This document shows positions 3,071-18,077 of a DNA stretch of 64,000 nt, in pieces. Origin of the DNA: an uncultured Chloroflexia bacterium. GTDB lineage: Bacteria; Chloroflexota; Anaerolineae; Anaerolineales; E44-bin32. A model generated the notes under the pieces. It saw only the letters and a program-made list of their open reading frames with translations, searched no databases and had not been told where the DNA came from. The DNA is taken from contig CAVUPD010000001.1 of NCBI GenBank assembly GCA_963743255.1, forward strand, positions 122,854-186,853. The letters run 5' to 3'. Both the position numbers and the translations under genes were made by a program. Within the stretch, counting starts at the first letter, position 1, and every line of letters starts with the position of its first letter.

Positions 3071-4105
3071 ATGCAAACTCCGACGCCCAGGTCCAACAGC
3101 GGCCCCCTGATCTTCGTCGCCATCGTGGGTGGCGGCGCCGTGCTTCTTCTGCTCGTCCTCGGGGCGTTCCTGCTCCTGCGGTCGCCGGCCGGCCCGAGCC
3201 CGGAGGAACTGCTGGCAACGGGCGCGGCGCAAACCGTCGCCGCCCAGCTGACGCAGGTCGCCATCCAGCAGACGATCGCGCCCCCGCCGCCGACCAATAC
3301 GTCCGGTCCGCCGACCGATACACCGCCGCCTCCGGCGACCGTCACCCCCACGCTTCCACCGATCACGTCGACGCCGGCGTGCACCGATCTGGCGGCGTTC
3401 GTGTCTGACGTGACGATCCCGGATAACACTTACATGCCGCCGTCGCAGGCCTTCACCAAGACCTGGCGGCTGAAGAACGCCGGCACGTGCACGTGGACGA
3501 CGGGTTACGCGCTGGTCTTCGACAGCGGCAACATCATGGGCGGCCCGACGTCGCAGAACCTGGCCGGCAACGTCCCGCCGGGTGCCAACGTCGACGTCTC
3601 CGTCAGCCTGGTCGCCCCGGGCGGCAACGGCACCCACCGCGGCAACTGGAAACTGCGCAACGACCGCGGTACGATCTTCGGCCTGGGCGGCGGCGGCCCG
3701 TTCTACCTGCAGATCATCGTCGGCCCGACGCCGACCTCCGGCCCGACGGTATACAAGACGGCGCAGTTCTACGTCCGGCAGACATACTACGGCGATCTCG
3801 ACGGCGGCACCGAAACGAGCACGGGGGCGGACTTCTGGTTCCACGCCGTCTCGGCCGTCGAAAAGTACATCGAGCCACAGAACGGGGCGAAGATGCTCAA
3901 GATGGGCGGGGTGCCGGACTACGACGCCTGCAAGGCCGCCGCTTTGAGCACCAGCGCCATAAACCTGAACACTTTCCCGGCCGGCAGCTGGATGTGCTAC
4001 AAGACCAACGACGGCCGCTACGGGCGGTTCACGCTGGACAGTTACAGCGATGTCGGCGGGACCAACGCGATGAACCTCGACATGCGCACGTGGAATAGCC
4101 CGTAG
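3071..4105 (+). CDS. membrane-anchored protein with NBR1-like (Ig-like) domain
   Basis: RBS AAGGAGAG lies upstream. It has an N-terminal TM helix (LIFVAIVGGGAVLLLLVLGAFLLL) and a Pro/Thr linker. The domain reads CTDLAAFVSDVTIPDNT...FTKTWRLKNAGTCTWTTGYALVF...HRGNWKLRN, typical of bacterial NBR1/FW-like domains. Function is unknown. Confidence 0.7.
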   Translation: MQTPTPRSNSGPLIFVAIVGGGAVLLLLVLGAFLLLRSPAGPSPEELLATGAAQTVAAQLTQVAIQQTIAPPPPTNTSGPPTDTPPPPATVTPTLPPITSTPACTDLAAFVSDVTIPDNTYMPPSQAFTKTWRLKNAGTCTWTTGYALVFDSGNIMGGPTSQNLAGNVPPGANVDVSVSLVAPGGNGTHRGNWKLRNDRGTIFGLGGGGPFYLQIIVGPTPTSGPTVYKTAQFYVRQTYYGDLDGGTETSTGADFWFHAVSAVEKYIEPQNGAKMLKMGGVPDYDACKAAALSTSAINLNTFPAGSWMCYKTNDGRYGRFTLDSYSDVGGTNAMNLDMRTWNSP

Positions 4106-4135
4106 CCCGGAACACGCCGTCACCGGCAGAACAGC

Positions 4136-4177
4136 CTCCCCGGCCCGCCGCCCACACGGCCGCGGGCCGGGGAGTTT
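4136..4177 (+). terminator. intrinsic terminator-like hairpin after 3071..4105
   Basis: 13-bp perfect stem CTCCCCGGCCCGC (4136-4148) / GCGGGCCGGGGAG (4162-4174), followed by TTTG. Confidence 0.55.
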
Positions 4178-4199
4178 GCATCCGGGCGATGATCCGCGC

Positions 4200-5246
4200 A
4201 TGCGGTTCTGGATGAACTCTCTCGTCAGAATCTCCATCCGCCACTTGCTCGTCGCGCTGGTGCTACCTGCTTTAGCCGCCTGCAATTACGCGGGTTGGCA
4301 GGTCTCCCGCCGACCCGCGCCCGTCGAGAGCCCAACGTCTCCCCCACTCGCCACGCTGCCCACACCGCAAGCCTCGGACTGTATTGAAGAGTTGACCGTC
4401 TTGAGCGAGTCGGGATACCCGGACGCTTCGCCCGCCAGCGCGGGAGCGATCGTGGAGCGCGTCTGGCACGTGCGCAACTCCGGCACCTGTGCCTGGACGA
4501 CCGCGTACACCCTCGTCCCCGTCGAAGGCGTCTCGTTCGGTCTGGACGCGATCGCGCTTGCCGATCCGGTCGCGCCGGGGGGGCAGACCGACCTGCACCT
4601 GATGCTCACCGCCCCGGACGACCCCGGCCTGCACGCTGGAGGCTGGGCGCTCCGGTCGCCCAGTGGGGCACTGCTCGGCGCCGGCAGCCGCCCGCTGCGC
4701 GTGCGCATCAACGTCGGACCCGTGCCGACCCAGCCGAGCACGGAGATCTACAACTTCGCCGAGCAGATGTGCAGCGCCGGCTGGGTGGCTGCATCACCCT
4801 CGCGCCCTGGGCGGCTGCTCCCATGCCCCGGATACGATCGCGATTCGGGAGGATCGGTGACGCGCCTGGAGGCGCCGCGCTTCTCCAATGGCGCGCTGGA
4901 CGACGAACCGGCGCTGATCCTGCACCCGCCGTTCGAGGACGGCGGGCTGATCAGCGGGACCTTCCCTGCCACCAACGTGCAGGCCGGCGATCAATTCCGC
5001 GTCATTCTGGGGTGCAGCGCTGATGCACCCGGGTGTTCCGCCCGGTTTCAGTTGAACGTGCGGGAGGGCGAGTTGCTCTCCCCCGTGGCCGAATGGCTCG
5101 TCAACGAGGACCAGGCGCCGCGCAACCTGGTGGTCGATCTCTCGTTTCTGGCCGGGCGGACGGTCGAGTTCGTGCTCGGTGTCGACGCCGACGGGTCGGG
5201 CGCTGCCGACGCCGCCCTCTGGCTCCAGCCGCGGCTCGTGCGTTGA
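4200..5246 (+). CDS. lipoprotein with NBR1-like domain (paralogue of the preceding gene's domain)
   Basis: Signal plus lipobox LLVALVLPALAAC. The domain reads VERVWHVRNSGTCAWTTAYTLVPV...HAGGWALRSPSG, with the same C-x-W-T pattern as 3071..4105. The start (4176, 4200 or 4212) is uncertain. Confidence 0.7.
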   Translation: MRFWMNSLVRISIRHLLVALVLPALAACNYAGWQVSRRPAPVESPTSPPLATLPTPQASDCIEELTVLSESGYPDASPASAGAIVERVWHVRNSGTCAWTTAYTLVPVEGVSFGLDAIALADPVAPGGQTDLHLMLTAPDDPGLHAGGWALRSPSGALLGAGSRPLRVRINVGPVPTQPSTEIYNFAEQMCSAGWVAASPSRPGRLLPCPGYDRDSGGSVTRLEAPRFSNGALDDEPALILHPPFEDGGLISGTFPATNVQAGDQFRVILGCSADAPGCSARFQLNVREGELLSPVAEWLVNEDQAPRNLVVDLSFLAGRTVEFVLGVDADGSGAADAALWLQPRLVR

Positions 5247-5294
5247 GCGGCACGAGCGTATTCTGATCTCAACCGACTGATCGCAGGTTCGCCG

Positions 5295-5927
5295 ATGGCA
5301 CCGTCCTTCCTCGAGGGCTTGGTGGCAGGCTATGGGATCGCCATCCCGGTCGGCGCCGTGGCGATGCTGATCGTCAACACGGCGCTCGCCCGAGGCTTCG
5401 CCGCGGGTTTCATGGCCGGCGCCGGCGCCGCCACCGCCGACCTGCTGTACGCAGCCCTGGCAGCATTCGCCGGCGTGGCGCTCTCGAACGCACTCGCCCC
5501 TCATGCCGAGACGACGCGCCTGATCGGTGGGTCCGCGCTGGTGGCGCTGGGGGTATGGGGAATCTGGAGGAGCCTCCACGCGCCGCCGGTGCAGGACGCG
5601 CCGGTCGACGCGCGCCCACCGCTCCGGACCTACCTGAATTTCGTCGGCATCACCCTTCTCAACCCGATGACGATTGTGTACTTCTCGGCATTCATCCTCG
5701 GACGCGGCACGGGCATGAGCGGCACGCCGACCGCCGGCGCGGCGTTCGTGTTCGGTGCCGGATTGGCTTCCCTCTCGTGGCAGACTTTGCTCGCCGGGCT
5801 GGGCGGGCTGGCGCGCAAGCGCGTCACGCCGCGCTTCCGCGCCCTGGCCGTCCTCGCCGGCAATCTGCTCGTGTGCGCCCTGGGCCTGCGATTGCTGATC
5901 CTGGCGCTCGTGTCTTCCCTCTCCTAG
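5295..5927 (+). CDS. LysE/ArgO-family amino-acid exporter
   Basis: 210-aa polytopic membrane protein. The N-terminus FLEGLVAGYGIAIPVGAVAMLIV...AGAGAATADLLYA is typical of the LysE family. Confidence 0.8.
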   Translation: MAPSFLEGLVAGYGIAIPVGAVAMLIVNTALARGFAAGFMAGAGAATADLLYAALAAFAGVALSNALAPHAETTRLIGGSALVALGVWGIWRSLHAPPVQDAPVDARPPLRTYLNFVGITLLNPMTIVYFSAFILGRGTGMSGTPTAGAAFVFGAGLASLSWQTLLAGLGGLARKRVTPRFRALAVLAGNLLVCALGLRLLILALVSSLS

Positions 5928-6044
5928 CCGCAGACCGCGCCGGCGATTCCAACACCACACCCGACCTTCCGGGCCCCTCCTTCCCGCCCACGCGCAAGGC
6001 ACACGCTCCGCTTCACCCGCCGGTTCGCTCACCGTGCGCCGTCG

Positions 6045-7537
6045 GTGCGAGCGCCCGTTCGACGAACTGTGCTAAAGTTCGACCTCGTGACTCTCCCGGT
6101 GCTTGTAGTCGACCCCGATCCCGAGCTGGCGGCGCTGATCCGGCAGTCGCTGGAGAAAGACTACGCGTGCCGCGTTGGCCTGGCCGCCACATCGAGCGAG
6201 GCTCTTGCCGCCGCACGCGCCGAGGAGTATCGTCTGGCCATCGTCGACCTCGACCTGCCGGACCTGCGCGAGGCCGATCTCATCCGCAGGCTGCGCAGTC
6301 TGCAGCCGGAGATGCTGCTCCTGGCGCTCTCCGCCGATCCCGTGGCGTTGACCGCAGACCCTCTCGGCATCCACGCCTCCTTGCCCAAGCCCTTCTATCT
6401 GCCCGACTTGATGGCGAAGATCCAACAGATGCTCAGCGCTCTTCAGCTGTCTCCGGACGAGGCCGGCGTGCGATCCCCCGCCCCCAAGCACCGGCTGGGC
6501 AGTGCCGCCGAAGCCGCACGGCTAGTGGCGCGGGGGCGCGCGATTCGGGCGCCTATCTCGTCCTGTTGACGCACGACGGGCGGCGCTGGGTTCACGCCGG
6601 TCCGATGCCGCAGGCGGCCGTCGAGCAGGTGGTGGCCAAAATTCAGGCTTATGGCATCCGAACTGACACACCGGGGGCCGTGGCCCGCTTTCTCCGATTT
6701 CCCGGCGCCGTCGATGCCTTCCTTCTTTACTGCCTGGCCCTGGCGGACGATTACTTGCTCGCCATCTTGTATCCGGCCCGGGTCCCATTCGGTTCGGTTC
6801 GTCGGCAGGCGGAGCGCCTGGCCGAGATGCTCACCCAGCCGGCTCCCATTCCTATGCCCGTCGTCGCGGGTGCGCGGCCAACCCAGGCGTCCACCGCCAT
6901 TGAGGAGATCGTCCGTCTGCCTCATGACTGGATTCCGCAGTCCTCGGCGCGCTACAGCCTGCCGTTCCTGGAGCCACGTGCTGAAGTGATCGCCGCTCCC
7001 CTCCCCGCATCGGCTCCGCTGATGCTGCCGGGCGACTGGCTGCCCGAGGGCGGGACGCTGCCGGTCGTTCATTCGATCCTCGGTTCCGCGCCGGCCGAGG
7101 AACGGGAAAATCCCGCGCCCGCGCCTCGCCCATCGGTGGCCGTCGAGCGAACCCGCGTCTCGCTGGTCTACGTCCCGCGCGATCCGGAGCTCGCCCTGCA
7201 AGCATCCCTGGCGGCGACGCTGGTCAACTGGACGAAGGAGATCTGCCGGGTGTTGGATTTCCGGCCGGTGGACATCCACGTCCGGCCGGATGCACTGTGC
7301 CTGACGATCGAGCTTCCCCCCGGGACTTCGCCGCCGACGGCCGCCCACCGCATGCGCCAGGAGCTCAGCCGACGCATCTCCGAAACCTATCCCAGCCAGG
7401 CAGCCGCGGCCGCCTCTGGCCGCTTCTGGACCTCGCGCTACTTGCTGATGTCCGGTGAACCTCCCACCTCACAGCGCATCACCGAGTTCGTGCGAGAGAC
7501 ACGCGGCCCTAGCCGCGCCCAGCGCACTACGTCGTAG
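6045..7537 (+). CDS. response-regulator receiver fused to a middle domain and a degenerate IS200/IS605 TnpA-like (HUH-fold) C-terminal domain; one apparent frameshift near 6540
   Basis: The receiver occupies 6045..6569: VLVVDPDPE, acceptor IVDLDLPD, LPKPF. The continuation lies in the frame of track ORF 5555..7537 (AYLVLLTHDG...). The C-terminus VSLVYVPRDPE...PDALCLTIELPPGTSPPTAAHRMRQELS...FWTSRYLLMSGEPPTSQRITEFV aligns by eye to IS200 TnpA (YHIVFAPKYRR...ADHIHMLLEIPPKMSVSSFMGYLKGKSS...FWCRGYYVDTVGKNTAKIQDYI). The start codon is uncertain. Confidence 0.65.
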
Positions 7538-7555
7538 ACCCTCCGCCAGGTCGGG

Positions 7556-7564
7556 TGCTACAAT
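7556..7564 (+). promoter_or_regulatory. candidate extended -10 promoter TGCTACAAT upstream of polA
   Basis: A TGnTAnAAT match lies 35 nt before ATG 7599. That ATG has its own RBS, GGGAGGAGG. Confidence 0.35.
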
Positions 7565-7598
7565 CGCCTTCGCCCCCGCCGTGCGGGAGGAGGTTCCC

Positions 7599-10386
7599 AT
7601 GCCGGATGCCCCGCGCCTTTTCTTGATCGACGGCCACGCGCTTGCCTACCGCGCCTACTTCGCCCTCACGCGCGCCGGCGACGGGAGCCGCTGGATCACT
7701 AAAGCCGGGGAATCGACGGCCGGCACCTACGGCTTTGTGTCCGTCCTTCTGCGACTGCTCGAAAGCCAGGCGCCGGAGTATCTGGCCGTCTCGTTCGACA
7801 CCGGCCGCACCTTTCGCGACGACCTGTATCCCGAGTACAAAGCCACGCGCGACAAGATGCCGGACGACCTGCGCCTGCAGCTCGATCGTATCCGCCAGGT
7901 GGTGCTGGCGTTCGGAATCCCGATCCTGGAGGCGGAAGGATTCGAGGCGGATGATGTCCTAGGGACGGTTGCGCGGCGCGCCGCCGAGCAGGGCGTGCGC
8001 GTCGTCATCCTGAGCGGCGACCGGGATCTGCTCCAGCTCGTGGACGACTTCGATCCACGTCGAGCTGGCCGGTCAGAAGCTCTCGGAGGCAATCGACTAT
8101 GGGCCGCAGGCCGTCTTCGACAAGTTCGGCGTCTCGCCCGGCCAGCTGATCGACTACAAGGCGCTGGTCGGCGACACCAGCGACAACATTCCCGGCGTCA
8201 AGGGCATCGGCGAGAAGACCGCCGTCGGCCTGATCCAGCAATACGGATCGCTCGAGGCGATCTACCAAAACCTGGGCGAGGTGCCGGAACGGTTCCGCAC
8301 CAAGCTCGAGCAAGGCCGCGAGCAGGCCTATTTGAGCCGCCGGCTGGTGACCATCGAGCTCGAGGTCCCGATCGAGTTCGACCTGGAGGCCTGCCGCGCG
8401 CATGACTACGATCGGACGCGCGTCGTCGAATTGTTCCGCGAGCTTGAGTTCCGTTCGCTGCTGACGCGCATCGCTCCGGAAGCAGAAGGTCCGTCGCGCC
8501 AGATGACCCTCTTCGCCACCCCTGCCGCCCCAACCCAGCCCATGGGCACTTTCCACATCATCGACAACCTGGCGGCGCTCGAGTCGCTCTCCGCACGCCT
8601 GCGGGACGCGGCGGAGATCGCCGTCGATGTCGAGACCACGGGCACCGACGCCACCCGCGCCGACCTGGTGGGCATCTCGCTGGCCGTCAAGCCCGGCGAG
8701 GGCTACTACCTGCCCGTCGGCCACCTCCCCCATCTCGCTGGCGGGCCACAGCTGCCTCTCGACGCGGTGCTGGAAGCGCTGCGCGGGCCACTGACCGACG
8801 CCTCGAAGCCGAAGGTGGGACACAACCTCAAGTACGACCTGATGGTGATGGCTCGGCACGGGCTCGCCTTCACCCCTCTCGGCTTCGACACCTTGTTGGC
8901 CGAGTGGCTGTGCGATCCGTCCTCACACAGCCTGGGGCTGAAAGACCTGGCCTTCGTGCGCCTGGGGCTGGAGATGACGCACATCCAGCAGTTGATCGGC
9001 AGCGGCCGCGAGCAGCGCTCGATGGCCGAAGTTCCGATCGCCGACGTGGCGCCGTACGCCTCGGCGGATGCCGAAATCTGCCTGCGCCTCAAACCGCAGC
9101 TCGAGCTGGAGCTGGAGAGTAAGCAGCACGGCTCGCTGTTCCGCGATCTGGAGATGCCCCTGGTCTCCGTCCTGGCGGCGATGGAGACCGCCGGCATCGC
9201 CCTCGATTTGCCGTTCCTGCACGGGCTGTCGCACACGCTGGGCACGCGCATTCAGGAGCTGGAGGCCGAGATCACGCGCCAGGTGGGGCATCCTTTCAAC
9301 CTCAATTCCACCCAGCAGCTGGCGGCGGTGCTGTTCAGCGAACTCGGGCTGGCGCCCCCCGACCGGACGCGGCAAGACCAGCAGCGGGCACTTCTCCACC
9401 GCCGCCTCGGTGCTGGAGGAACTGCGCCACGCGCACCCGGTGGTCGACAAGATCCTCGAGCACCGTGAGCTGTCGAAGCTGCGTTCAACTTACACCGACG
9501 CGCTCCCGGCGCAGGTCAATCCACAGACCGGCCGCGTGCACACCTCGTTCTCGCAGACCGGCGCCGTGACCGGTCGCCTGGCGTCCTCGGATCCGAATCT
9601 GCAGAACATCCCCATCCGCACCGAGCTGGGCCGGCAGATCCGGCGCGCGCTTCATCGCCGCGCCCGGCCACCTGCTGCTCAGCGTCGATTACTCGCAGAT
9701 CGAGCTGCGCATCGTCGCCCATGTCTCGGAAGACCAGGCGATGATGCGCGCCTTCCACGAGGACCAAGACATCCATGCCGCCACCGCTGCCGCCGTCTTC
9801 GGGGTGCCGCAGGCGTCGGTCTCGCCGGAGATGCGCCGGCATGCCAAGGCCGTCAACTTCGGGTTGATCTACGGCATGAGCGCCTTCGGGCTGTCGCGCT
9901 CCACCGACCTGACGCTGGCCGAGGCCGAGACATTCGTCCGCGTGTACTTCGAGCGCTTCCCGGGCGTGCGGCGCTATCTGGACGAGACGCGGCGGCTGGC
10001 CGGCGAGCGGGGCTACGTCGAGACGCTGCTCGGCCGCCGGCGCTACTTCCCGCAGCTGATGAAGGGCGCGCAGGCGGTGCCGGATGCGGCCCGCAACCGG
10101 GCGGAACGCGAGGCGATCAACGCTCCGATCCAGGGGACGGCGGCCGACATCATCAAGCTGGCCATGATTCGTCTGCCTGAGGCGTTGGGCGCGGCGGGGC
10201 TGCGCGCCCGCATGCTGCTCCAGGTGCACGATGAACTGGTGTTCGATGTGCCCGAGGATCAGCTCGGCCCGTCCGTCCTGCTGGTGCAGCAGGTGATGCA
10301 GTCGCCGATGAGTTCTGCGCGTGCCGCTCAAGACCGACGCCAAGGTCGGAGTCAACTGGGCTGAGATGCAGCCGGTCGGGCGCTGA
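7599..10386 (+). CDS. polA: DNA polymerase I, four apparent frameshifts (near 8050, 9370, 9648, 10312)
   Basis: Pieces lie in track ORFs 7455..8405, 8281..9468, 9068..10180 and 9741..10364. Recognisable motifs are the 5'-nuclease [64 protein letters not shown] and QVHDELVF. The C-terminal [21 protein letters not shown] ends at TGA 10384-10386. Confidence 0.9.
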
Positions 10387-10458: not shown

Positions 10459-12804
10459 ATGACCGGACGCCAGGATCTGTTCGATGAATTGATGCGCCTC
10501 GGCCATTCGGCGGCCTGGGATTTGCAGTGGACGCGGTCCATTGAGTTCTACCGCAAGGCGCTGGCCGAGTTCCCCGACCATCCCACCGCCCTCACCAGCC
10601 TGGCCCTGGCACTGCTCGAAACCGGCGAGCTGAAGGAATCGTTCGCCACCTATCGGCGCGCCTCCCAGGTCTCCCCCGAAGACGCCATTCCCGTCGAGAA
10701 GATGGCCGACGTGCAGGAACGCCTCGGCCAGCTCAAAGAGGCGCTTGAACTGCGCGAGAAAGCCTCCGACTTGTACATCCGGGAGCGTAACGTCGAGAAG
10801 GCCCTCGATAACTGGAACCACATCGCCCGGCTGCAGCCGGAGAATCTCGCCACTCGCTCGCGGTTGGCGTTGACCTACGAACGGCTGGGCCGGCCCAAGG
10901 AAGCGGTGCGCGAGTATCTGGCCGTCGCCTCCGTCCTGCAGAAGCTCGGGCGGAATGAGCGCGCCATCGAATTGGCCCAACGGGCCCTGACACTGGTCCC
11001 CGGCGAGCCGGAAGCCACTGCGGCACTGCGCGTCTTGCGTGAGGGCAAGCCGCTTCCCCCGCCGATCCAGCCGCGTGGCGCCACCGCCCCCCTGCGGATG
11101 GCCCAGGTGAAGGAGTTTATCCACGCCGAGGAGCCCGCCTCGCCTTCCGAGACCGACCTGGAGGCCGGCAACGCCGTCGACCCCGAGGTTGCCGCCCAGC
11201 GCCAGGCGCTGACCATCCTGGCCGGCATGCTGTTCGACGAGCCGCAGGATGCCGTCACCGGCAAGCTGGGGACGCCGGGCATGAACGCGCTGACCAAGGG
11301 CGAGAAGGGCGCGGACGACAAAGGCTCCGGTCGACCTCAGGCGTACCGCTACCTGGGCCAGGCCATCGACCTGCAGACCCACGGACACACGATGCAGGCG
11401 GCCAAGGACCTCGCCCGGGCGATCGACTCCGGCCTGGATCACCCGGCCGCCCATTACAACCTCGGCCTGCTCTACCGCGAGTTGGGCGATGAGGAGGGAG
11501 CGCGCAAGCACCTGATGGGCGCCCTGGGCCATCCCGAGCTTTCGCTGGGCGCCAACCTGGCGCTCGGACGGATGGCACGCGCCAAGGGCGACCTGCCCGA
11601 GGCGTCGCGTTTCCTGCTTCAGGCCTTGCGCAAAGCGGACAGTCTGTCGGTCGAGGAGAGCCAGTCCTCCCAACTCAGCCAGTTGTACGACACGATCCAG
11701 GCGTCGCAGAATGTCGGCGACACGCAGGCGCTGTCGCAGATTGTCGAGAATACGCTGAGTTTCCTCAGTGGCCCGGAGTGGCTCAAGCGGCTGCGCCAGG
11801 CGCGTCAGCAGCTGACCGGACGGCGCCATGGCAGCGGGGTGGTCCCGATCGCCGAGATGCTGGCCGTCGGCGGGACGGACCGCGTCATCCAGTCCATGGC
11901 CCGCATCGACGAACTGACCGACCTGGGCCTGCTGGGTTCCGCGGCGGAGGAAGCGATGCTCGCCATGCAATCGGCGCCCACGTACCTGGCGCTGCATCAG
12001 CGCCTGGCCGACATCATGCTCAAGGCCGGCCGCACGGAGCAGGCGATCGAGAAGCTGCGCGTGATCGCCGAAACCTATATCATCCGCGGCGACGGCGCCC
12101 AGTCGATCGAGATCTTCACCACCATCCTGACCCACTCACCGGTCGATATCCCCATCCGCCTGCGGCTGATCGACCTGCTCAGCCAGCAGGACCGGCTCGA
12201 CGAGGCGCTGCACGAGTACCTCGAGCTGTCGGAACTGTACAAGCAGATGGCCGAGATTGACGAGGCGCGTAAGACGCTGGCCGAGGCCCTGCGCCTCGCT
12301 CAGCGCTCGACCGTCGACCGCCAGCGCTCGGTGGAGATCCTGCACCAGATGGGCGACATCGACCTGTCGCGCCTCGACTGGCGCCGCGCGCTGCGCGTCT
12401 ACGAGCAGGTGCGGACGATCGATCCGGCTGACGACAAGGCGCGCCACAACGTCATTGACCTGAACCTGCGCCTCGGCCAGGAAGACCAGGCGGCCAAGGA
12501 GCTCGACAGCTACCTGCAGCTGCTGGTGGAGTCGGGCCGCAACCAGCAGGCGCTTGATCTGCTGGAGGAAATGGCCCGCGAGCATCCCGGCAAGCAGACG
12601 CTGCACACGCGGCTGGCCGACGCCTACCGAGCTGCCGGCCGCAAGGCCGACGCCATCGCCCAGTACGACGCACTGGGAGAGATCCAGCTCGACGCCGGCC
12701 AGGCCGAAGCCGCCGCCCGCACGATCCAGACCATCCTTTCGCTGGACCCTCCGGACTCCGAGGGCTACCGCGAGCTGCTGCGCAACCTGGAAGCCGGTCA
12801 ATGA
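10459..12804 (+). CDS. tetratricopeptide-repeat (TPR) protein
   Basis: 781-aa ORF with many 34-residue A/L/Y-rich helical repeats (for example AIELAQRALTLVPGEP, AHYNLGLLYRELGDEEGA). Confidence 0.85.
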   Translation: MTGRQDLFDELMRLGHSAAWDLQWTRSIEFYRKALAEFPDHPTALTSLALALLETGELKESFATYRRASQVSPEDAIPVEKMADVQERLGQLKEALELREKASDLYIRERNVEKALDNWNHIARLQPENLATRSRLALTYERLGRPKEAVREYLAVASVLQKLGRNERAIELAQRALTLVPGEPEATAALRVLREGKPLPPPIQPRGATAPLRMAQVKEFIHAEEPASPSETDLEAGNAVDPEVAAQRQALTILAGMLFDEPQDAVTGKLGTPGMNALTKGEKGADDKGSGRPQAYRYLGQAIDLQTHGHTMQAAKDLARAIDSGLDHPAAHYNLGLLYRELGDEEGARKHLMGALGHPELSLGANLALGRMARAKGDLPEASRFLLQALRKADSLSVEESQSSQLSQLYDTIQASQNVGDTQALSQIVENTLSFLSGPEWLKRLRQARQQLTGRRHGSGVVPIAEMLAVGGTDRVIQSMARIDELTDLGLLGSAAEEAMLAMQSAPTYLALHQRLADIMLKAGRTEQAIEKLRVIAETYIIRGDGAQSIEIFTTILTHSPVDIPIRLRLIDLLSQQDRLDEALHEYLELSELYKQMAEIDEARKTLAEALRLAQRSTVDRQRSVEILHQMGDIDLSRLDWRRALRVYEQVRTIDPADDKARHNVIDLNLRLGQEDQAAKELDSYLQLLVESGRNQQALDLLEEMAREHPGKQTLHTRLADAYRAAGRKADAIAQYDALGEIQLDAGQAEAAARTIQTILSLDPPDSEGYRELLRNLEAGQ

Positions 12805-12829
12805 CGGCCGGGGCGCGCCAGGCCAAGCC

Positions 12830-13696
12830 GTGTCCGACCTGCTCCAGGAGCTGATCTTCTCGTTCCAGCGCCTCGACTGGCTCAGCCTGGTCGATCTGCT
12901 GCTGGTGACGGCGATCTTCTTCCTGCTGCTGCGCTGGCTGCGCGGCACGCAGGCCGTCGTCCTATTGCGCGGCATGGTCGTGCTGGTGTTGGCCATCGCC
13001 CTGCTCACCAGCCTGCTGCCGCTGCCGGCCTTCTCCTACCTGTTTCGCACCGCACTCCCCGCCCTGCTGATCGCCGTGCCGGTCATCTTCGCCCCGGAGA
13101 TCCGCCGCGCCCTCGAACGTGTGGGGCGCGCCGGCGACGTCTTCATCTCTGCCTCCGAGCCGGCCCAGGTCGAACGCATGGTCGGGGCCTTGTGCACCGC
13201 CAGCCAGCGGCTGTCAGACGCCCGGCGCGGCGCGCTGATCGTCATCGAGCGCGACGTCAAGCTCGACGAGTATCTCGAGACCGGCGTGCCCCTGGACGCC
13301 CGCCTCTCGGCCGAGCTGCTGCTGCAGATCTTCTACATCAACACCCCGCTGCATGACGGTGCCGCGATGCTGCGCGGCGATCGCGTCGCCGCCGCCGCCT
13401 GCGTCATGCCGCTCTCGGCCAGCGGCACGCTGTCGCGTTCGCCCGAACGCCAGATGGGCCTGCGTCATCGCGCCGCCCTGGGCATTAGCGAGGTCAGCGA
13501 CGCCGTCGTCATCGTCGTCTCCGAAGAGACGGGCAGCATCTCCGTCGCCCACAACGGCCGGATGATTCGCCGCCTCGACCAGAGCCGTCTACGCAATATC
13601 CTGATGGCTTTCTACCGGCCGCGCGCCCCACACTGGATCCCGGTGTGGTTCGAGCGTCTGAGCGCCCGGGCGCGTCCGCCCCGGCGCCCGCGCTGA
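12830..13696 (+). CDS. cdaA: diadenylate cyclase CdaA (DisA_N domain)
   Basis: GTG start in the frame of track ORF 12554..13696. It has N-terminal TM helices and the DAC motifs INTPLHDGAAML and GLRHRAALGISEVSDAVVIVVSEETGSISVAHNG. Confidence 0.88.
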   Translation: MSDLLQELIFSFQRLDWLSLVDLLLVTAIFFLLLRWLRGTQAVVLLRGMVVLVLAIALLTSLLPLPAFSYLFRTALPALLIAVPVIFAPEIRRALERVGRAGDVFISASEPAQVERMVGALCTASQRLSDARRGALIVIERDVKLDEYLETGVPLDARLSAELLLQIFYINTPLHDGAAMLRGDRVAAAACVMPLSASGTLSRSPERQMGLRHRAALGISEVSDAVVIVVSEETGSISVAHNGRMIRRLDQSRLRNILMAFYRPRAPHWIPVWFERLSARARPPRRPR

Positions 13697-13705
13697 GAGG
13701 CACCC

Positions 13706-14947
13706 ATGCTGCGGTGGCTGTGGGAACACCTGAGCACGCTAGCCCTGGCCTTTGTCCTGGCCTTCGTCGTCTGGGTGGCGGCGGTCAATGCCGCCGACCC
13801 GGCTGCCGTGCGCTCCTTCCCCACCAGCCTGCCGATCGACTACGTCGGGCTGCAGGACGGGCTGGTCATCGTCAACGGCGCCCCGAACTCAACCCGCGTG
13901 ACGATCCGTGCGCCGGGTTCGGTGTGGGACCTGCTTACGGCGCGCGATCTGCATGTCGAGGCCAGGCTGCAGGGGCTGGGCATCGGGACGCACGCGGTGA
14001 CGCTGGTCGGTATCGTCGATCGACAGCCGGCGCGGATCACTCAGATCGAGCCGGCGCGCCTCGAGCTGACCCTCGAGCAGGCCTCCAGCCGGAACCTCCC
14101 GATCCGGGCCATGATCACCGGCGAACCCGCTCTCGGCTACCGCATGGACGATCCGGTCGCCATCCCCGAATCGGTCCGCGTCTCCGGCCCGGCGTCGCTC
14201 GTCGAGCAGGTGGCGACGGTCGTGGCGCAGGCGGATGTCACCGGCCGCCGTGAGGATATCGACACCACGGTCAGCCTGGCGGCCCTGGATTCCGATGGGC
14301 GCGCCGTGCGGGGCGTGAGCCTCGACCCTGCCTCCGCCCGTGTGGTGACCACCGTGCATCAGCTCGTCGGCTACCGGCTCGTCGCCGTCATCCCGATCAT
14401 CCAGGGCCAGGTGGAGCCCGGCTACCAGGTCTCGAGCATCATCGTCTCGCCGACGCTGGTGACCGTCTTCTCGCCCGATCCGCAGGCGGTGGATGCGCTG
14501 CCCGGGTTCGTCGAGACCGAATCGGTCAATCTGACCGGCGCCCGCGACGACATCGAGCAGACGGTCGGCGTGCTGCTACCCGATGGCATCTTCCTGGCTG
14601 GCAACCAGTCGGTTGTCGTTCAGATCCAGGTGGCGGCGATCGAGACGACGATCAACGTCCGCCGGCCGATTGAGATCGAGGGCCTGGCGCCGGGGCTGTT
14701 CGCCCAGTCGTCGCCGGTGACGGCCTCGGTCATCCTCAAGGGGCCGCTGCCGGTGCTCGACAAACTGTTGTACGAGGACGTGCGCGTCGTCGTCATCGTC
14801 GAAGGGATGGCGGCCGGAGCCTATCAACTCGCCCCGCAGGTCCTCATCCTACCGGAGGGCGTCGTGCTGCAGACGCTGCTGCCCGAGACGTACGAGATCG
14901 TGCTCTCGCGCACGCCTCCCCCCACGCCCGTCACGCCCGCGCCCTGA
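13706..14947 (+). CDS. cdaR: CdaA regulatory protein CdaR (YbbR-like repeats)
   Basis: Lies immediately downstream of cdaA. It has an N-terminal TM helix followed by repeated beta-rich YbbR-type modules (VxVxG...VxLxP). Confidence 0.78.
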   Translation: MLRWLWEHLSTLALAFVLAFVVWVAAVNAADPAAVRSFPTSLPIDYVGLQDGLVIVNGAPNSTRVTIRAPGSVWDLLTARDLHVEARLQGLGIGTHAVTLVGIVDRQPARITQIEPARLELTLEQASSRNLPIRAMITGEPALGYRMDDPVAIPESVRVSGPASLVEQVATVVAQADVTGRREDIDTTVSLAALDSDGRAVRGVSLDPASARVVTTVHQLVGYRLVAVIPIIQGQVEPGYQVSSIIVSPTLVTVFSPDPQAVDALPGFVETESVNLTGARDDIEQTVGVLLPDGIFLAGNQSVVVQIQVAAIETTINVRRPIEIEGLAPGLFAQSSPVTASVILKGPLPVLDKLLYEDVRVVVIVEGMAAGAYQLAPQVLILPEGVVLQTLLPETYEIVLSRTPPPTPVTPAP

Positions 14948-14951
14948 TCCC

Positions 14952-16337
14952 ATGGCCCGACCCGTCGTCGCTCTCGTCGGCCGGCCGAATGTGGGCAAGT
15001 CGACTCTGTTCAACCGGCTGGCCGGTCAGCGCCTGGCCGTCGTCGACGATCGCCCCGGCACGACGCGCGACCGGCTGGTCGCAGGCGCGGAGTGGCGCGG
15101 GGTTACCTTCAATCTGGTGGACACCGGCGGCATCGACCCCACTGGCGGGTTGCGCGGCGAGCCGCTCAGCCTGGACTCGGCCGATTACATTCAGCAGATC
15201 CGATCCCAGGCCGAGCAAGCCGTCGGCGCTGCCGACGCCATCCTCTTTCTGGTCGACGCCGCCAGCGGCGTCACGCCGGCCGATCATGAAGTCGCCGCCA
15301 TCCTGCGCCGCGCACAAGGCGCGCTGCGCGGCCGGCAGCCGCCCCCCGTCCTGCTGGTCGTCAATCGCTGCGACAACCAGGCGCTGCGCGGTCAGGCGCT
15401 CGAGTTCTACGAGCTCGGCATGGGCGATCCGCTGGCGGTCTCCGCTCTGCACGGCACCGGCATCGGCGACCTGCTGGACCGCCTCTTCGATGCCCTGGGG
15501 CCGATGGCCCAGCCGCCCGACGAACCCGAGACGTCGGTGCGCATCGCCATCGTCGGTCGTCCCAACGTCGGCAAGTCCAGCCTGCTCAATCGCATTCTGG
15601 GCGAGGAGCGCGTCATCGTGTCGCCGATCCCGGGCACGACCCGTGACGCCATCGACACGGAGCTCAACGCTTTCGGGACCCAGATCACCCTGATCGACAC
15701 AGCCGGCATCCGCCGTCGGGGCCACATCGACCCCGGCGTCGAGAAGTACTCGGTGCTGCGCGCTCTGCGAGCGCTCGAGCGCGCCGATGTGGCGCTGCTT
15801 CTGATCGACGCCACCACCGGCGTCACGGCCCAGGATGCGCACATCGCCGGGATGGTCATCGACTTGTCCAAGAGCGTGGTGGTGATCGTCAACAAGTGGG
15901 ACGCGGTCGAGAAGGACAGCAACACGCTGCACGAGTACACAGATCACGTCCGGCAGGAGTTGAGTTTCCTCGATTACGTGCCGGTACTGTTCGTCTCGGC
16001 GCTGACCGGACAGCGCGTGCAGCAGGTCCTCCCGATGGCGCTGCAGGTGCAGGAGGAGCGCTTGCGACGCATCGCCACCTCCGATCTCAACCGCATGATG
16101 CAGGCCGCGCTCGAACAGCACCCGCCGCCGTCCAAGTCCGGCACCGAAGTCAAGCTGTACTTCATGGCGCAGGTGCGCACCGATCCGCCCACGTTCGCCA
16201 TCCAGGTCAACGACCCAAAGCTGGTGCATTTCACCTATTTGCGCTTCCTCGAGAACAGGATGCGCGAGCGCTACGGGTTCCTGGGCACGCCGATTCGCAT
16301 CGTCCTGCGCAAGCACGAACGCAAGTCGCGCCGCTGA
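14952..16337 (+). CDS. der: ribosome-biogenesis GTPase Der (EngA)
   Basis: Two tandem GTPase domains with P-loops GRPNVGKSTLFNRL and GRPNVGKSSLLNRI, plus a KH-like C-terminus. Confidence 0.95.
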   Translation: MARPVVALVGRPNVGKSTLFNRLAGQRLAVVDDRPGTTRDRLVAGAEWRGVTFNLVDTGGIDPTGGLRGEPLSLDSADYIQQIRSQAEQAVGAADAILFLVDAASGVTPADHEVAAILRRAQGALRGRQPPPVLLVVNRCDNQALRGQALEFYELGMGDPLAVSALHGTGIGDLLDRLFDALGPMAQPPDEPETSVRIAIVGRPNVGKSSLLNRILGEERVIVSPIPGTTRDAIDTELNAFGTQITLIDTAGIRRRGHIDPGVEKYSVLRALRALERADVALLLIDATTGVTAQDAHIAGMVIDLSKSVVVIVNKWDAVEKDSNTLHEYTDHVRQELSFLDYVPVLFVSALTGQRVQQVLPMALQVQEERLRRIATSDLNRMMQAALEQHPPPSKSGTEVKLYFMAQVRTDPPTFAIQVNDPKLVHFTYLRFLENRMRERYGFLGTPIRIVLRKHERKSRR

Positions 16338-16406
16338 GGTTCCTTCGCCTGTCCGTTCGGACGCATGCCTCGGCCGCCCTCCGGCCCTCCGGGAGAGGGA
16401 GTCAAA

Positions 16407-16447
16407 CCCCCTCCCCCGTAGGGGGAGGGGGTGAGGGGGCGAAAGAC
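16407..16447 (+). repeat. REP-like element: hairpin CCCCCTCCCCC-GTA-GGGGGAGGGGG plus tail TGAGGGGGCGAAAGAC
   Basis: Perfect 11-bp palindrome. The tail motif GTGAGGGGGCGAAAGAC recurs at 17988-18004. Confidence 0.7.
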
Positions 16448-16546
16448 TCCCCTCATTTGCTCATCTCTGTTCGCCCACGCTGCGAGTTGTCCCCTACCGT
16501 CAGAGATGGAGGAAGGGCGCGGCTCCGCGCCCCTCACGCACCTTTT

Positions 16547-16575
16547 CCCCCCTCACCCCCCGCCCTCTTGCACCT
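16547..16575 (-). repeat. REP-like element copy (reverse orientation)
   Basis: CCCCTCACCCCCCGCCCTCTTGCACC is the reverse complement of the ...AGAGGG..GGGGTGAGGGG family. A partial copy GCCCCTCAC lies at 16529-16537. Confidence 0.5.
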
Positions 16576-16635
16576 GACTACGGTGCCCTGCTGCTCGATG
16601 CGTGCCGGGCGCGTGTTGAGGTGGAAGGAGGCAGT

Positions 16636-16665
16636 CGCCCCCTCACGCCAACCCTCTTGCCCCCC
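16636..16665 (-). repeat. REP-like element copy (reverse orientation)
   Basis: GCCCCCTCACGCCAACCCTCTTGCCCCC has the reverse complement GGGGGCAAGAGGGTTGGCGTGAGGGGGC. This closely matches the 17974-17997 copy. Confidence 0.55.
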
Positions 16666-16742
16666 AACTCGGGTCACCTTGGGCTTGCCCTGGTTTTGTG
16701 GACACATTCGATGACGCGTAAACTGCGGTCAGGAGATGTGCC

Positions 16743-17039
16743 ATGGGGAAGAGAAGTCGGACGTACGGGCGTGAGTTCAAGGTGGAAGCACTGCAGCTCC
16801 TGTCCCGGGGCGGGAAGAGCGCTGCCGAACTAGAGCGGGAGTTAGGGATCACCAAGGGGATGCTGCTCAAGTGGCGGGATCGTTATCAGGTGGACGAGCA
16901 GCGCCAGAGTCTTGAGCCAAGCGACCTCGAGGCCGCTAAGGCTGAGGTCAGGCGCCTGAGGCGGGAACTGGAGGTGACGACGCAGGAGCGCGACATCCTA
17001 AAAAAAGCGGTGGCGATCTTCTCGCACAAGGGCGAGTGA
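16743..17039 (+). CDS. IS3-family transposase OrfA (HTH)
   Basis: 98 aa: RTYGREFKVEALQLL...ELGITKGMLLKWRDRY, then a leucine-zipper-like region RRLRRELEVTTQERDILKKAVAIF. Confidence 0.88.
   Translation: MGKRSRTYGREFKVEALQLLSRGGKSAAELERELGITKGMLLKWRDRYQVDEQRQSLEPSDLEAAKAEVRRLRRELEVTTQERDILKKAVAIFSHKGE
17000..17007 (+). other. programmed -1 ribosomal frameshift site A AAA AAA G (makes the OrfAB fusion)
   Basis: Seven A followed by G sits in the zero frame as cta-aaa-aaa-gcg. The -1 frame continues SGGDLLAQGRVTYEFIARQ into orfB, and the orfB frame is -1 relative to orfA. Confidence 0.75.
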
Positions 17040-17914
17040 CGTATGAGTTCATTGCCCGGCAGAGCGGGGAGTATCCGGTGAGGCGGTTGTGTGGAGCACT
17101 TGGGGTGCCGCCCAGCAGCTACTATGCCTGGCGCAAGCGACCGGCCAGTGGCCATCAGCAGGCCAACCGGGGGCTGGTGGAGCAGATTCGGAGAGTGCAT
17201 GCAGAGAGCCGGGGCACCTATGGCAGTCCACGGGTACACCAGGGGTTGCGGCAGCGGGGCGTGGTCTGTGGACGGCACCGGGTGGCGCGGCTGATGCGTT
17301 TGAGCGGGATCGTGGCGAGACGGGCGTCTCGGCGGCGCCCCACAACCACGCAGCGGCGGGCGGGGGCTCCGATCTGGCCGAACCGGCTGCGGCAGGACTT
17401 CCAGGCGGAGCGGCCGAACCAGAAGTGGGTAGCGGACATCACGTACATTGACACGCGGGAGGGCTGGCTGTATCTGGCGGTGCTCATGGATCTGTGCAGC
17501 CGGCGAGTGGTGGGCTGGTCCATGGGAGAGGATCTGAGTGCGAGCCTGGTGGAAGATGCCCTGGCCATGGCGGTTGGTCGACGGGACGTGGGGGAAGGAC
17601 TGTTACATCACTCGGATCGGGGGTGCCAGTACACCAGCCACACCTATCAGGGACGGCTGGCTGAACTCAAGGCGCAGGTGAGCATGAGCGGCGTGGGCAA
17701 CTGCTACGACAATGCGGTGATGGAAAGCTTCTTCAGCACGCTCAAAGCAGAATGCGCCACGTATCGCTTCACCTGCCGGGAGGAGGCACGGCGGCAGATC
17801 TTCGAGTTCATCGAAATCTGGTACAACCGCCAGCGGATGCATTCAAGCTTGGACTACCTGAGCCCAGCCAAGTACGAAAGCAGGCTGAGCTCAGACATGA
17901 TAAGTGTCCATTGA
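17036..17914 (+). CDS. IS3-family transposase OrfB (DDE integrase core)
   Basis: WVADITYI...HSDRGCQYTS...YDNAVMESFFSTLKAE are rve-domain motifs. The stop TGA (17912-14) lies just beyond the IS end, across the junction with the duplicated target. Confidence 0.88.
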   Translation: MTYEFIARQSGEYPVRRLCGALGVPPSSYYAWRKRPASGHQQANRGLVEQIRRVHAESRGTYGSPRVHQGLRQRGVVCGRHRVARLMRLSGIVARRASRRRPTTTQRRAGAPIWPNRLRQDFQAERPNQKWVADITYIDTREGWLYLAVLMDLCSRRVVGWSMGEDLSASLVEDALAMAVGRRDVGEGLLHHSDRGCQYTSHTYQGRLAELKAQVSMSGVGNCYDNAVMESFFSTLKAECATYRFTCREEARRQIFEFIEIWYNRQRMHSSLDYLSPAKYESRLSSDMISVH

Positions 17915-17961
17915 ATCGGGGGAACCTCACCCTGCGGCCCTACGGGGGAGGGAGCCGAGCG

Positions 17962-18004
17962 CCCTCTCCCGTAGGGAGAGGGTTGGGGTGAGGGGGCGAA
18001 AGAC
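17962..18004 (+). repeat. REP-like element: hairpin CCCTCTCCC-GTA-GGGAGAGGG plus TTGGGGTGAGGGGGCGAAAGAC
   Basis: 9-bp perfect palindrome with the same GTA loop and the same 17-nt tail as the copy at 16407-16447. Confidence 0.7.
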
Positions 18005-18077
18005 CCGCCTTCAATTTCGCCTCCCCCGGCACGCCGCCGTACACGAGGCCTACCTTGTCACCCCTCGCGCCGGGTCT

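Follow-up and report, generated by a model that had tools for sequence, protein, structure and literature searches.

A catalytically dead IS200/IS605 TnpA-like domain joined to receiver and Roadblock/LC7 domains in a polA-linked gene of Anaerolineae

The closest described relatives of the gene reported here are the TnpA transposases of the IS200/IS605 insertion sequences, which have the Y1_Tnp fold, and the RAYT proteins (TnpA_REP). RAYTs are defined by an intact HUH (His-hydrophobic-His) motif with the catalytic Tyr and by a REPtron arrangement, and they co-occur with abundant repetitive extragenic palindromes (REPs) (Nunvar 2010, PMC2817692; Quentin 2018, PMC6006769). In the second of these sources, the HuH/Y core is described as common to all 12 TnpA_Y1 subclasses, and extra domains, such as DnaA-like and helix-turn-helix (HTH) ones, are named for TnpA_Y1 proteins; a term search of it for receivers or response regulators brought up nothing (PMC6006769). 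Neither a receiver (REC)-Y1_Tnp fusion nor a catalytically dead Y1 family was found described in the literature searched. Here, a stretch of 64,000 nucleotides from an uncultured Chloroflexia bacterium (assembly GCA_963743255.1, contig CAVUPD010000001.1), referred to as the window, was analyzed. At positions 6087-7537 of its forward strand it carries a gene for a protein of 483 residues plus stop, interrupted in the assembly by a deletion of one nucleotide. In the corrected protein a receiver, a Roadblock/LC7 domain, a Pro-rich linker and a C-terminal Y1_Tnp domain devoid of the catalytic residues follow one another. This gene, called the dead-Y1 gene below, and its family unite features of two known kinds of protein, response regulators and domesticated Y1 transposases.

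The IS200/IS605 TnpA-like domain was assigned to residues 356-473 (7151-7504, forward strand). A first-pass annotation of the window had aligned the last ~130 residues with IS200 TnpA by eye, and this alignment proved to be statistically real. The isolated domain matched the Pfam profile Y1_Tnp ('Transposase IS200 like') with 36.7 bits against 23 (E 5.4e-9), over profile positions 4-119 of 121. The NCBIfam model transpos_IS200 (NF033573) gave 40.4 bits, which is under its equivalog cut-off of 55, and phmmer against the PDB recovered the Sulfolobus IS200 TnpA structures 2ec2 (E 1e-4) and 2f4f (E 7e-4) as well as ISDra2 TnpA. The assignment was also borne out by structure prediction. From 20 close homologues, AlphaFold2 (AF2) reached a predicted local distance difference test score (pLDDT) of just 57; with 55 diverse family members, the mean pLDDT was 83, and this model was used. 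In this model, pLDDT values exceeded 90 across the Y1-like domain, and the top PDB matches of the whole model in Foldseek were crystal structures of the ISDra2, Sulfolobus and ISHp608 TnpA proteins (E 4e-9 to 1e-6; target-normalised template-modelling (TM) scores of 0.70-0.80).

All four residues that perform catalysis in TnpA were replaced. In the HMMER alignment, 'VMPDHIHLFV' of TnpA stood opposite 'VRPDALCLTI', with A-L-C in place of HUH (7292-7300), and 'IKKYIEE' and 'IQKYIE' stood opposite 'ITEFVRE', with Phe in place of the catalytic Tyr in ITEFVRETRG (7478-7507). When the motif Y-x3-Q was read by us onto the same alignment, its Gln corresponded to Thr at +4. The HUH and Tyr replacements had been pointed out in the first pass; the HMMER and PDB alignments agreed on them, and the loss was found to be family-wide. 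Among 149 representatives (50%-identity clusters), the position of the first His was occupied by Tyr in 96 and by His in 14, and that of the second by Gln in 68 and by His in 12. The only two representatives that kept both histidines had Phe where the Tyr would be. Across the 149, the Tyr position held Phe in 113 and Tyr in 33, and none combined an intact HUH motif with Tyr.

Other positions of the domain were held almost constant across relatives of 25-35% identity, P364, R365, W382, C387, P416, S428, F447, W448 and F468 being near-invariant and R473 invariant. Judging from these residues, the dead domain is under strong purifying selection, and such conservation at this divergence indicates a maintained non-catalytic function. 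The first-pass annotation had spoken of a domesticated single-strand/hairpin-DNA-binding output domain. A domesticated, non-catalytic effector fold was judged to be a fair description, because the catalytic loss is family-wide and the purifying selection strong; the DNA-binding part of that claim did not gain the same standing and is kept here as a proposal.

The size of the family was estimated by an exhaustive HMMER search over 1.84 billion representative proteins, which yielded 538 clusters (50% identity) at E <= 1e-3 and 151 clusters at the stricter limit of E <= 1e-10. With few exceptions, these proteins were 450-780 residues long and had the Y1-like domain at the extreme C-terminus. The pairing of receiver and Y1_Tnp domains seen in the first pass recurred among distant full-length relatives, in which Y1_Tnp was located at the C-terminus in 87 of 87 and Response_reg was detectable in 65 of 87. 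Databases annotate the members automatically as 'CheY-like/RayT', 'IS200/IS605 family transposase' or 'response regulator'.

Further, a scan of one genome per GTDB species, made with two peptide patterns that are specific to a single subgroup, detected the gene in at least 477 species genomes. The best 80 loci of the 477 had Anaerolineales, Anaerolineae or Chloroflexota labels, save one Bacteroidota-labelled contig. That contig (L086, JBLMZU010000034.1) was deposited as a Bacteroidota metagenome-assembled genome; it shows the gene and then polA in the Anaerolineae-type order and is probably mis-binned. In 70 of the 79 evaluable genomes of the 80 loci, the gene of DNA polymerase I, polA, lay on the same strand no more than 600 nucleotides downstream, and in most of these a TPR gene came next; at seven loci, other genes had been brought in downstream by rearrangement. 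Distant relatives (27-32% identity) had the gene, polA and a ~780-residue TPR gene together on one strand with different outer flanks in all six cases looked up singly, and the gap between the gene and polA went down to 10 and 24 nucleotides. Five loci of close relatives shared the longer order of the window, which was N_BRCA1_IG, LysE, (NUDIX), the dead-Y1 gene, polA, TPR, DAC, YbbR and Der. A stable single locus tied to polA marks a host gene and not a transposon, and it was concluded that the dead-Y1 gene is a vertically inherited, single-locus host gene across Anaerolineae and no mobile element. The public names 'IS200/IS605 family transposase' and 'RayT' are misleading, and the family members should not be counted as mobile elements.

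The receiver was located at residues 3-118 (6093-6440, forward strand). It matched Pfam Response_reg with E 1.1e-12 and 48.5 bits (gathering score 30.2), over residues 19-127 of a longer reconstruction of 497 residues, was modelled by AF2, in which it spans residues 1-118, with a pLDDT of 90-97 and matched CheY-like receivers in Foldseek with a TM score of 0.8. The canonical N-terminal receiver described in the first pass was recovered, with the acceptor D54 in IVDLDLPD (6240-6263) and K101 in the Lys motif LPKPF (6381-6410). The receiver of the window additionally has D9 and D11 (as D-P-D) and S82. Among 99 full-length representatives, the acceptor Asp was retained in 91 and Lys or Arg at the Lys position in 81; the first pocket Asp was retained in just 30 and replaced by Thr in 52, and at the Thr/Ser position ~10 had Thr or Ser and 69 had Pro. 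From these residues, phospho-control of the receiver would be plausible for the clade of the window; for much of the family it would be doubtful. In none of the loci examined was a histidine kinase found next to the gene.

A middle domain, which is absent from the first-pass account, was recognized as Roadblock/LC7 (MglB-like) at residues 135-250 (6489-6835, forward strand). Searched as a single sequence, the middle segment gave no match to Robl_LC7 or any other Pfam family at E <= 10 and no phmmer match in the PDB, and the relation to MglB became visible only with a family profile. The profile, which was made from 25 family members and used in hmmsearch, matched the Thermus and Myxococcus MglB structures 3t1s, 1j3w, 6h5b and 6izw over the full length (E 1.9e-6 to 2.3e-5). 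In the AF2 model, the domain had a pLDDT of ~95 and the topology a-b-b-a-b-b-b-a, and the receiver together with the middle domain was aligned by Foldseek to Rag/Gtr chains, in which a G-domain is followed by a roadblock domain. No MglA-like gene was adjacent in any of the loci examined, and no gene of a small GTPase was conserved beside the dead-Y1 gene; the Der GTPase is encoded ~7 kb downstream in the window and is not kept in distant loci.

Between the Roadblock/LC7 and Y1-like domains lies a disordered Pro-rich linker (residues 251-355; 6836-7150, forward strand) with a pLDDT below 60 and no secondary structure. It contains the motif P-x-DW-[IL]-P twice, as LPHDWIPQ (residues 278-285, 6917-6940) and as LPGDWLPEG (residues 314-322, 7025-7051). 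At least one DWxP motif was present in 46 of the 99 representatives, always within the linker and clustered at 50-70% of the protein length. The DW-x-P motifs may be regarded as candidate docking motifs, and the conserved TPR neighbour would be the obvious candidate partner.

The two reading frames of the gene were assigned by tblastn with the homologue P0001 (93% identity), of which residues 1-150 fell on 6087-6536 in frame 3 and residues 150-480 on 6533-7525 in frame 2. The receiver frame is open from 6045 and meets a stop at 6567-6569; the downstream frame, -1 relative to it, is open until 7537. The GTG at 6087 is, by comparison of the N-termini, the likely start codon rather than 6045, because homologues begin with M-[AT]-L-P-V-L-V-V. 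The frameshift that the first pass had noticed near 6540 is present in the sequence and was placed at a G5 run (6533-6537, forward strand) that is one G short, where homologues read ...ARG-ARDSG.... One added G (GGGGG to GGGGGG) joins both frames into the 483-residue protein. The junction 'ARLVARGARDSGAYLVLL' was invariant in an alignment of 19 homologues, and the junction peptide ...AAEAARLVARGARDSGAYLVLL... was the same in all 19, the window matching it once the G had been added. The close relatives, ~40 in a collection of 5.8 billion proteins (59-93% identity, among them 'Chloroflexi bacterium RBG_13_68_17'), are nearly all single open reading frames (ORFs) of 480-529 residues with both Pfam domains. 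The receiver and the C-terminal part are not separate genes, a possibility that the first pass had considered: these homologues are uninterrupted.

Upstream of the gene, an extended -10-like box, TGTGCTAAAGT (6063-6086, forward strand), lies 8-9 nucleotides from the GTG start, and the block CGAAGTGTGCTA[GA]AGT is conserved at this place shortly ahead of the start codon in the window and in the loci L001, L002, L003 and L005. The box probably acts as a promoter, and its mRNA would be leaderless or nearly so. Beyond it, no conserved operator, palindrome or hairpin was found upstream of the gene, and an Rfam scan of 5-19 kb gave no matches. A sigma70-like site, TAGACC-18 nt-TGcTACAAT, was also observed at 7535-7564; it overlaps the stop codon of the dead-Y1 gene and lies ~35 nucleotides upstream of the Shine-Dalgarno sequence and ATG of polA. 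In the clade of the window, polA may be separately transcribed.

The disarmed enzyme of a mobile element seems to have been recruited here for a host DNA-related job. It was proposed that the dead-Y1 protein is a non-cutting DNA-binding partner of Pol I, dimeric and tuned by its receiver; taken as a whole, this proposal is given about an even chance of being correct. The dead Y1 domain would be a module that binds without cutting, its most plausible ligand being single-stranded or hairpin DNA, an idea drawn by analogy from TnpA, which grips such DNA on the lagging-strand template. The protein would probably be a dimer, held together through the Roadblock domain and, if the analogy with dimeric TnpA holds, through the Y1 domain as well. 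The receiver would switch or tune the dimer, by phosphorylation in the clade of the window and perhaps without phosphorylation in relatives devoid of the pocket, and the DW-x-P motifs would probably be docking sites for a partner, the TPR protein or Pol I for instance. The protein would act with DNA polymerase I in the replication or repair of structured single-stranded DNA, and not in REP mobilisation. A wider form of this proposal, in which the gene codes for a class-wide Pol I accessory factor not described before, was held to be tentative and rather doubtful. In that form, a dimeric (pseudo)receiver-Roadblock protein would recognize, by its disarmed IS200 domain, single-stranded DNA or hairpins that occur on the lagging strand or in repair gaps, and its DW-x-P tether would be the means to recruit or gate Pol I and the TPR partner.

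Several points weigh against a DNA-binding partner of Pol I. Nucleic-acid binding by the dead domain is something that we infer from its likeness to TnpA. The domain carries a net charge close to neutral (family median +1); as a proxy for DNA binding, net charge was uninformative, and it is not decisive here, as the aligned core of Sulfolobus TnpA has just ~+3 by hand count. Common descent could account for part of a gene order that is conserved within one class, and the promoter-like sites of both genes in the window mean that co-transcription with polA is not universal. Most relatives are devoid of the acidic pocket and the Thr/Ser residue, so classical phospho-control may not apply family-wide. 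Finally, five frameshifts occur in the dead-Y1 gene plus polA and none in the following 5.9 kb, and this clustering makes a joint recent decay in this one genome possible.

A classical transcription-factor response regulator, in which the dead Y1 domain is an unusual DNA-binding output controlling the polA-TPR genes or its own promoter, would agree with the presence of a receiver plus a C-terminal nucleic-acid-binding fold. The conserved polA neighbour (70/79) and the promoter-like sites just upstream of the gene and of polA would suit it too. However, the upstream regions hold no conserved palindrome or hairpin apart from the -10-like box, and the polA gap of 10-60 nucleotides in many genomes is too short for an operator. 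The missing kinase neighbour and the receiver pocket, degenerate in most family members, also argue against such a regulator, and it was considered unlikely.

The retention of canonical TnpA motifs (P-R near strand 1, the S/T-x-R helix and F-W-x-x-x-Y/L), together with the fact that the single conserved neighbour singled out is a DNA polymerase, argues against a protein-protein scaffold or pseudoenzyme. Under that explanation, the protein would be a Roadblock-type signalling module which binds no nucleic acid, and its dead Y1 domain would be used for dimerisation or partner binding only. Roadblock/LC7 domains, represented here by the MglB match, are indeed platforms for dimerisation and GTPase regulation, TnpA is an obligate dimer, the net charge of the dead domain is near neutral, and the linear DWxP motifs with a TPR neighbour suggest peptide docking. 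Since no small GTPase is conserved beside the gene either, a scaffold of this kind was judged to be decidedly unlikely.

It was also considered whether the gene has recently become a true pseudogene in this genome, or is in fact a pair of genes, and is decaying along with polA. The deposited assembly calls just a C-terminal ORF of 310 residues, and the database entry P0002, which is 100% identical, is this same shortened call; the clustering of the five frameshifts in the gene plus polA points in the same direction. Four of the five are in polA (7599-10386, forward strand), the conserved downstream neighbour, which was traced by tblastn of the L001 PolA through frames 3, 1, 2, 3 and 1: compared with a homologue of 83-94% identity, it has single-base insertions at 8053, 9371, 9649 and 10311 and no in-frame stops. 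Across both genes, in-frame stops are missing and the identity to intact homologues is 83-96% on either side of each shift. The downstream frame of the dead-Y1 gene has no credible start codon near the junction, which argues against two genes, and a loss of polA would be unusual. Moreover, at least three unrelated conserved genes of the window are likewise split, namely a REC-GAF gene at ~19.79 kb, a cyclase-family gene at ~35.64 kb and a CoxL-type molybdenum hydroxylase gene at ~40.52 kb, the last being broken within its GGGFG motif (~40525). The same pattern was seen in another long contig, the 997-kb contig L091 of a relative, in which polA is in four pieces. The frame plot of GC content at third codon positions (GC3), used for frameshift detection, was noisy, and the candidates were inspected by eye. 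Because the homologues are uninterrupted and polA and at least three other genes of the window are also split, the frameshift was read as an assembly error. Judged by these comparisons, it is very probably an artefact in an assembly that is error-prone in general and probably of the long-read type, and genuine decay or a pair of genes is very unlikely.

The REP-like hairpins that the first-pass annotation had reported at 16.4-18.0 kb do exist. Hairpins were located at 16407-16431 and 17962-17982, within two full units of roughly 80 nucleotides (16377-16453 and 17930-18010), and partial inverted units were found at 16545-16559 and 16635-16657. The two full units, the only ones within the window, bracket an IS3-family insertion sequence (16699-17910; orfA with HTH_Tnp_1, orfB with rve, and terminal inverted repeats TGGACAC... 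read by eye) and are 9 kb away from the dead-Y1 gene. Some IS3-family elements target clusters of REPs or bacterial interspersed mosaic elements (BIMEs), and the IS3 element inside the hairpin cluster resembles that situation. The conserved 15-mer of the units was absent from 89 related loci (~0.85 Mb) that all carry the gene, and around the gene (5200-8300) no inverted palindromes beyond chance-level short matches were detected. A RAYT-like protein with these hairpins as its ligands, the link that the first pass had drawn, is extremely improbable in spite of the two hairpin-forming units and of a Joint Genome Institute (JGI) auto-annotation with the COG name 'RayT', for the RAYT-defining catalytic motifs are missing, the units surround an insertion sequence, the listed structural neighbours are IS200 TnpA proteins with no E. 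coli RAYT among them, and the REP-ligand idea for the dead domain was rejected on the lack of flanking repeats and of the 15-mer in related loci.

The third member of the conserved triad, the TPR gene (10459-12804, forward strand), codes for a protein of 781 residues recognized by Pfam TPR families, and it follows polA also in the loci L001-L003, L007-L009 and L090-L092. It opens a downstream block (10459-16334) in which a diadenylate cyclase (DAC) and YbbR, a CdaA/CdaR-like pair, and the Der GTPase are encoded next. All four genes are intact in the window, and the TPR gene alone of this block stays linked in distant relatives. Upstream, one or two genes of N_BRCA1_IG (NBR1-like Ig) proteins were observed in the window (3449-5243) and in L003, L007 and L092; they were not observed in L008, L009, L090 and L091.

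In RAYTs, the domesticated Y1/HUH transposases known from earlier descriptions, the catalytic residues are intact; in the dead-Y1 family the fold persists without the chemistry and is fused to signalling domains, which makes it a clear case of a transposase domain retained after the loss of catalytic residues. The gene is fixed beside polA in an abundant, poorly studied bacterial class, with at least 477 species genomes carrying it, and it would extend the response-regulator repertoire by a new output domain. The proposed partnership offers a concrete, testable link of single-strand or hairpin DNA recognition to Pol I. Its wider form, if true, would amount to an ancient exaptation, in which a single-strand transposase was taken into the replication and repair machinery of its host.

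Compared with the IS200/IS605 TnpA proteins (ISDra2 2xm3/2xma, ISHp608 2vic, Sulfolobus 2ec2/2f4f), the dead-Y1 family shares the fold over ~118 residues with a full-length Y1_Tnp match, and with it P-R after strand 1, PD before the HUH strand, the S/T-x-R helix, the F-W...Y/L strand and the C-terminal helix. Unlike TnpA, the dead-Y1 protein of the window has other residues in place of the HUH histidines, the catalytic Tyr and the Gln, and its Y1 domain follows a receiver and a Roadblock domain; the gene occupies a fixed chromosomal site as a single copy, subterminal hairpins and tnpB are absent, and nothing indicates mobility. The family resembles the RAYTs (TnpA_REP), some of which have extra domains, in being a host-retained derivative of the Y1 transposase fold, and differs from them in having no intact HUH plus Tyr and no flanking REPs; of REP-like units, the window holds two full ones. 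The middle domain is like MglB and the Roadblock/LC7 proteins by profile and topology, and the receiver-Roadblock pair superposes loosely on Rag/Gtr; in contrast to MglB, no partner small GTPase is conserved nearby, and the Roadblock domain is embedded in a multidomain, polA-linked protein. Finally, as in response regulators with a non-canonical output, an N-terminal CheY-like receiver with the acceptor Asp and Lys-Pro is followed by a C-terminal effector, whereas in this family no kinase is adjacent, most relatives are pseudo-receiver-like, and the output that follows the Roadblock domain is a dead transposase.

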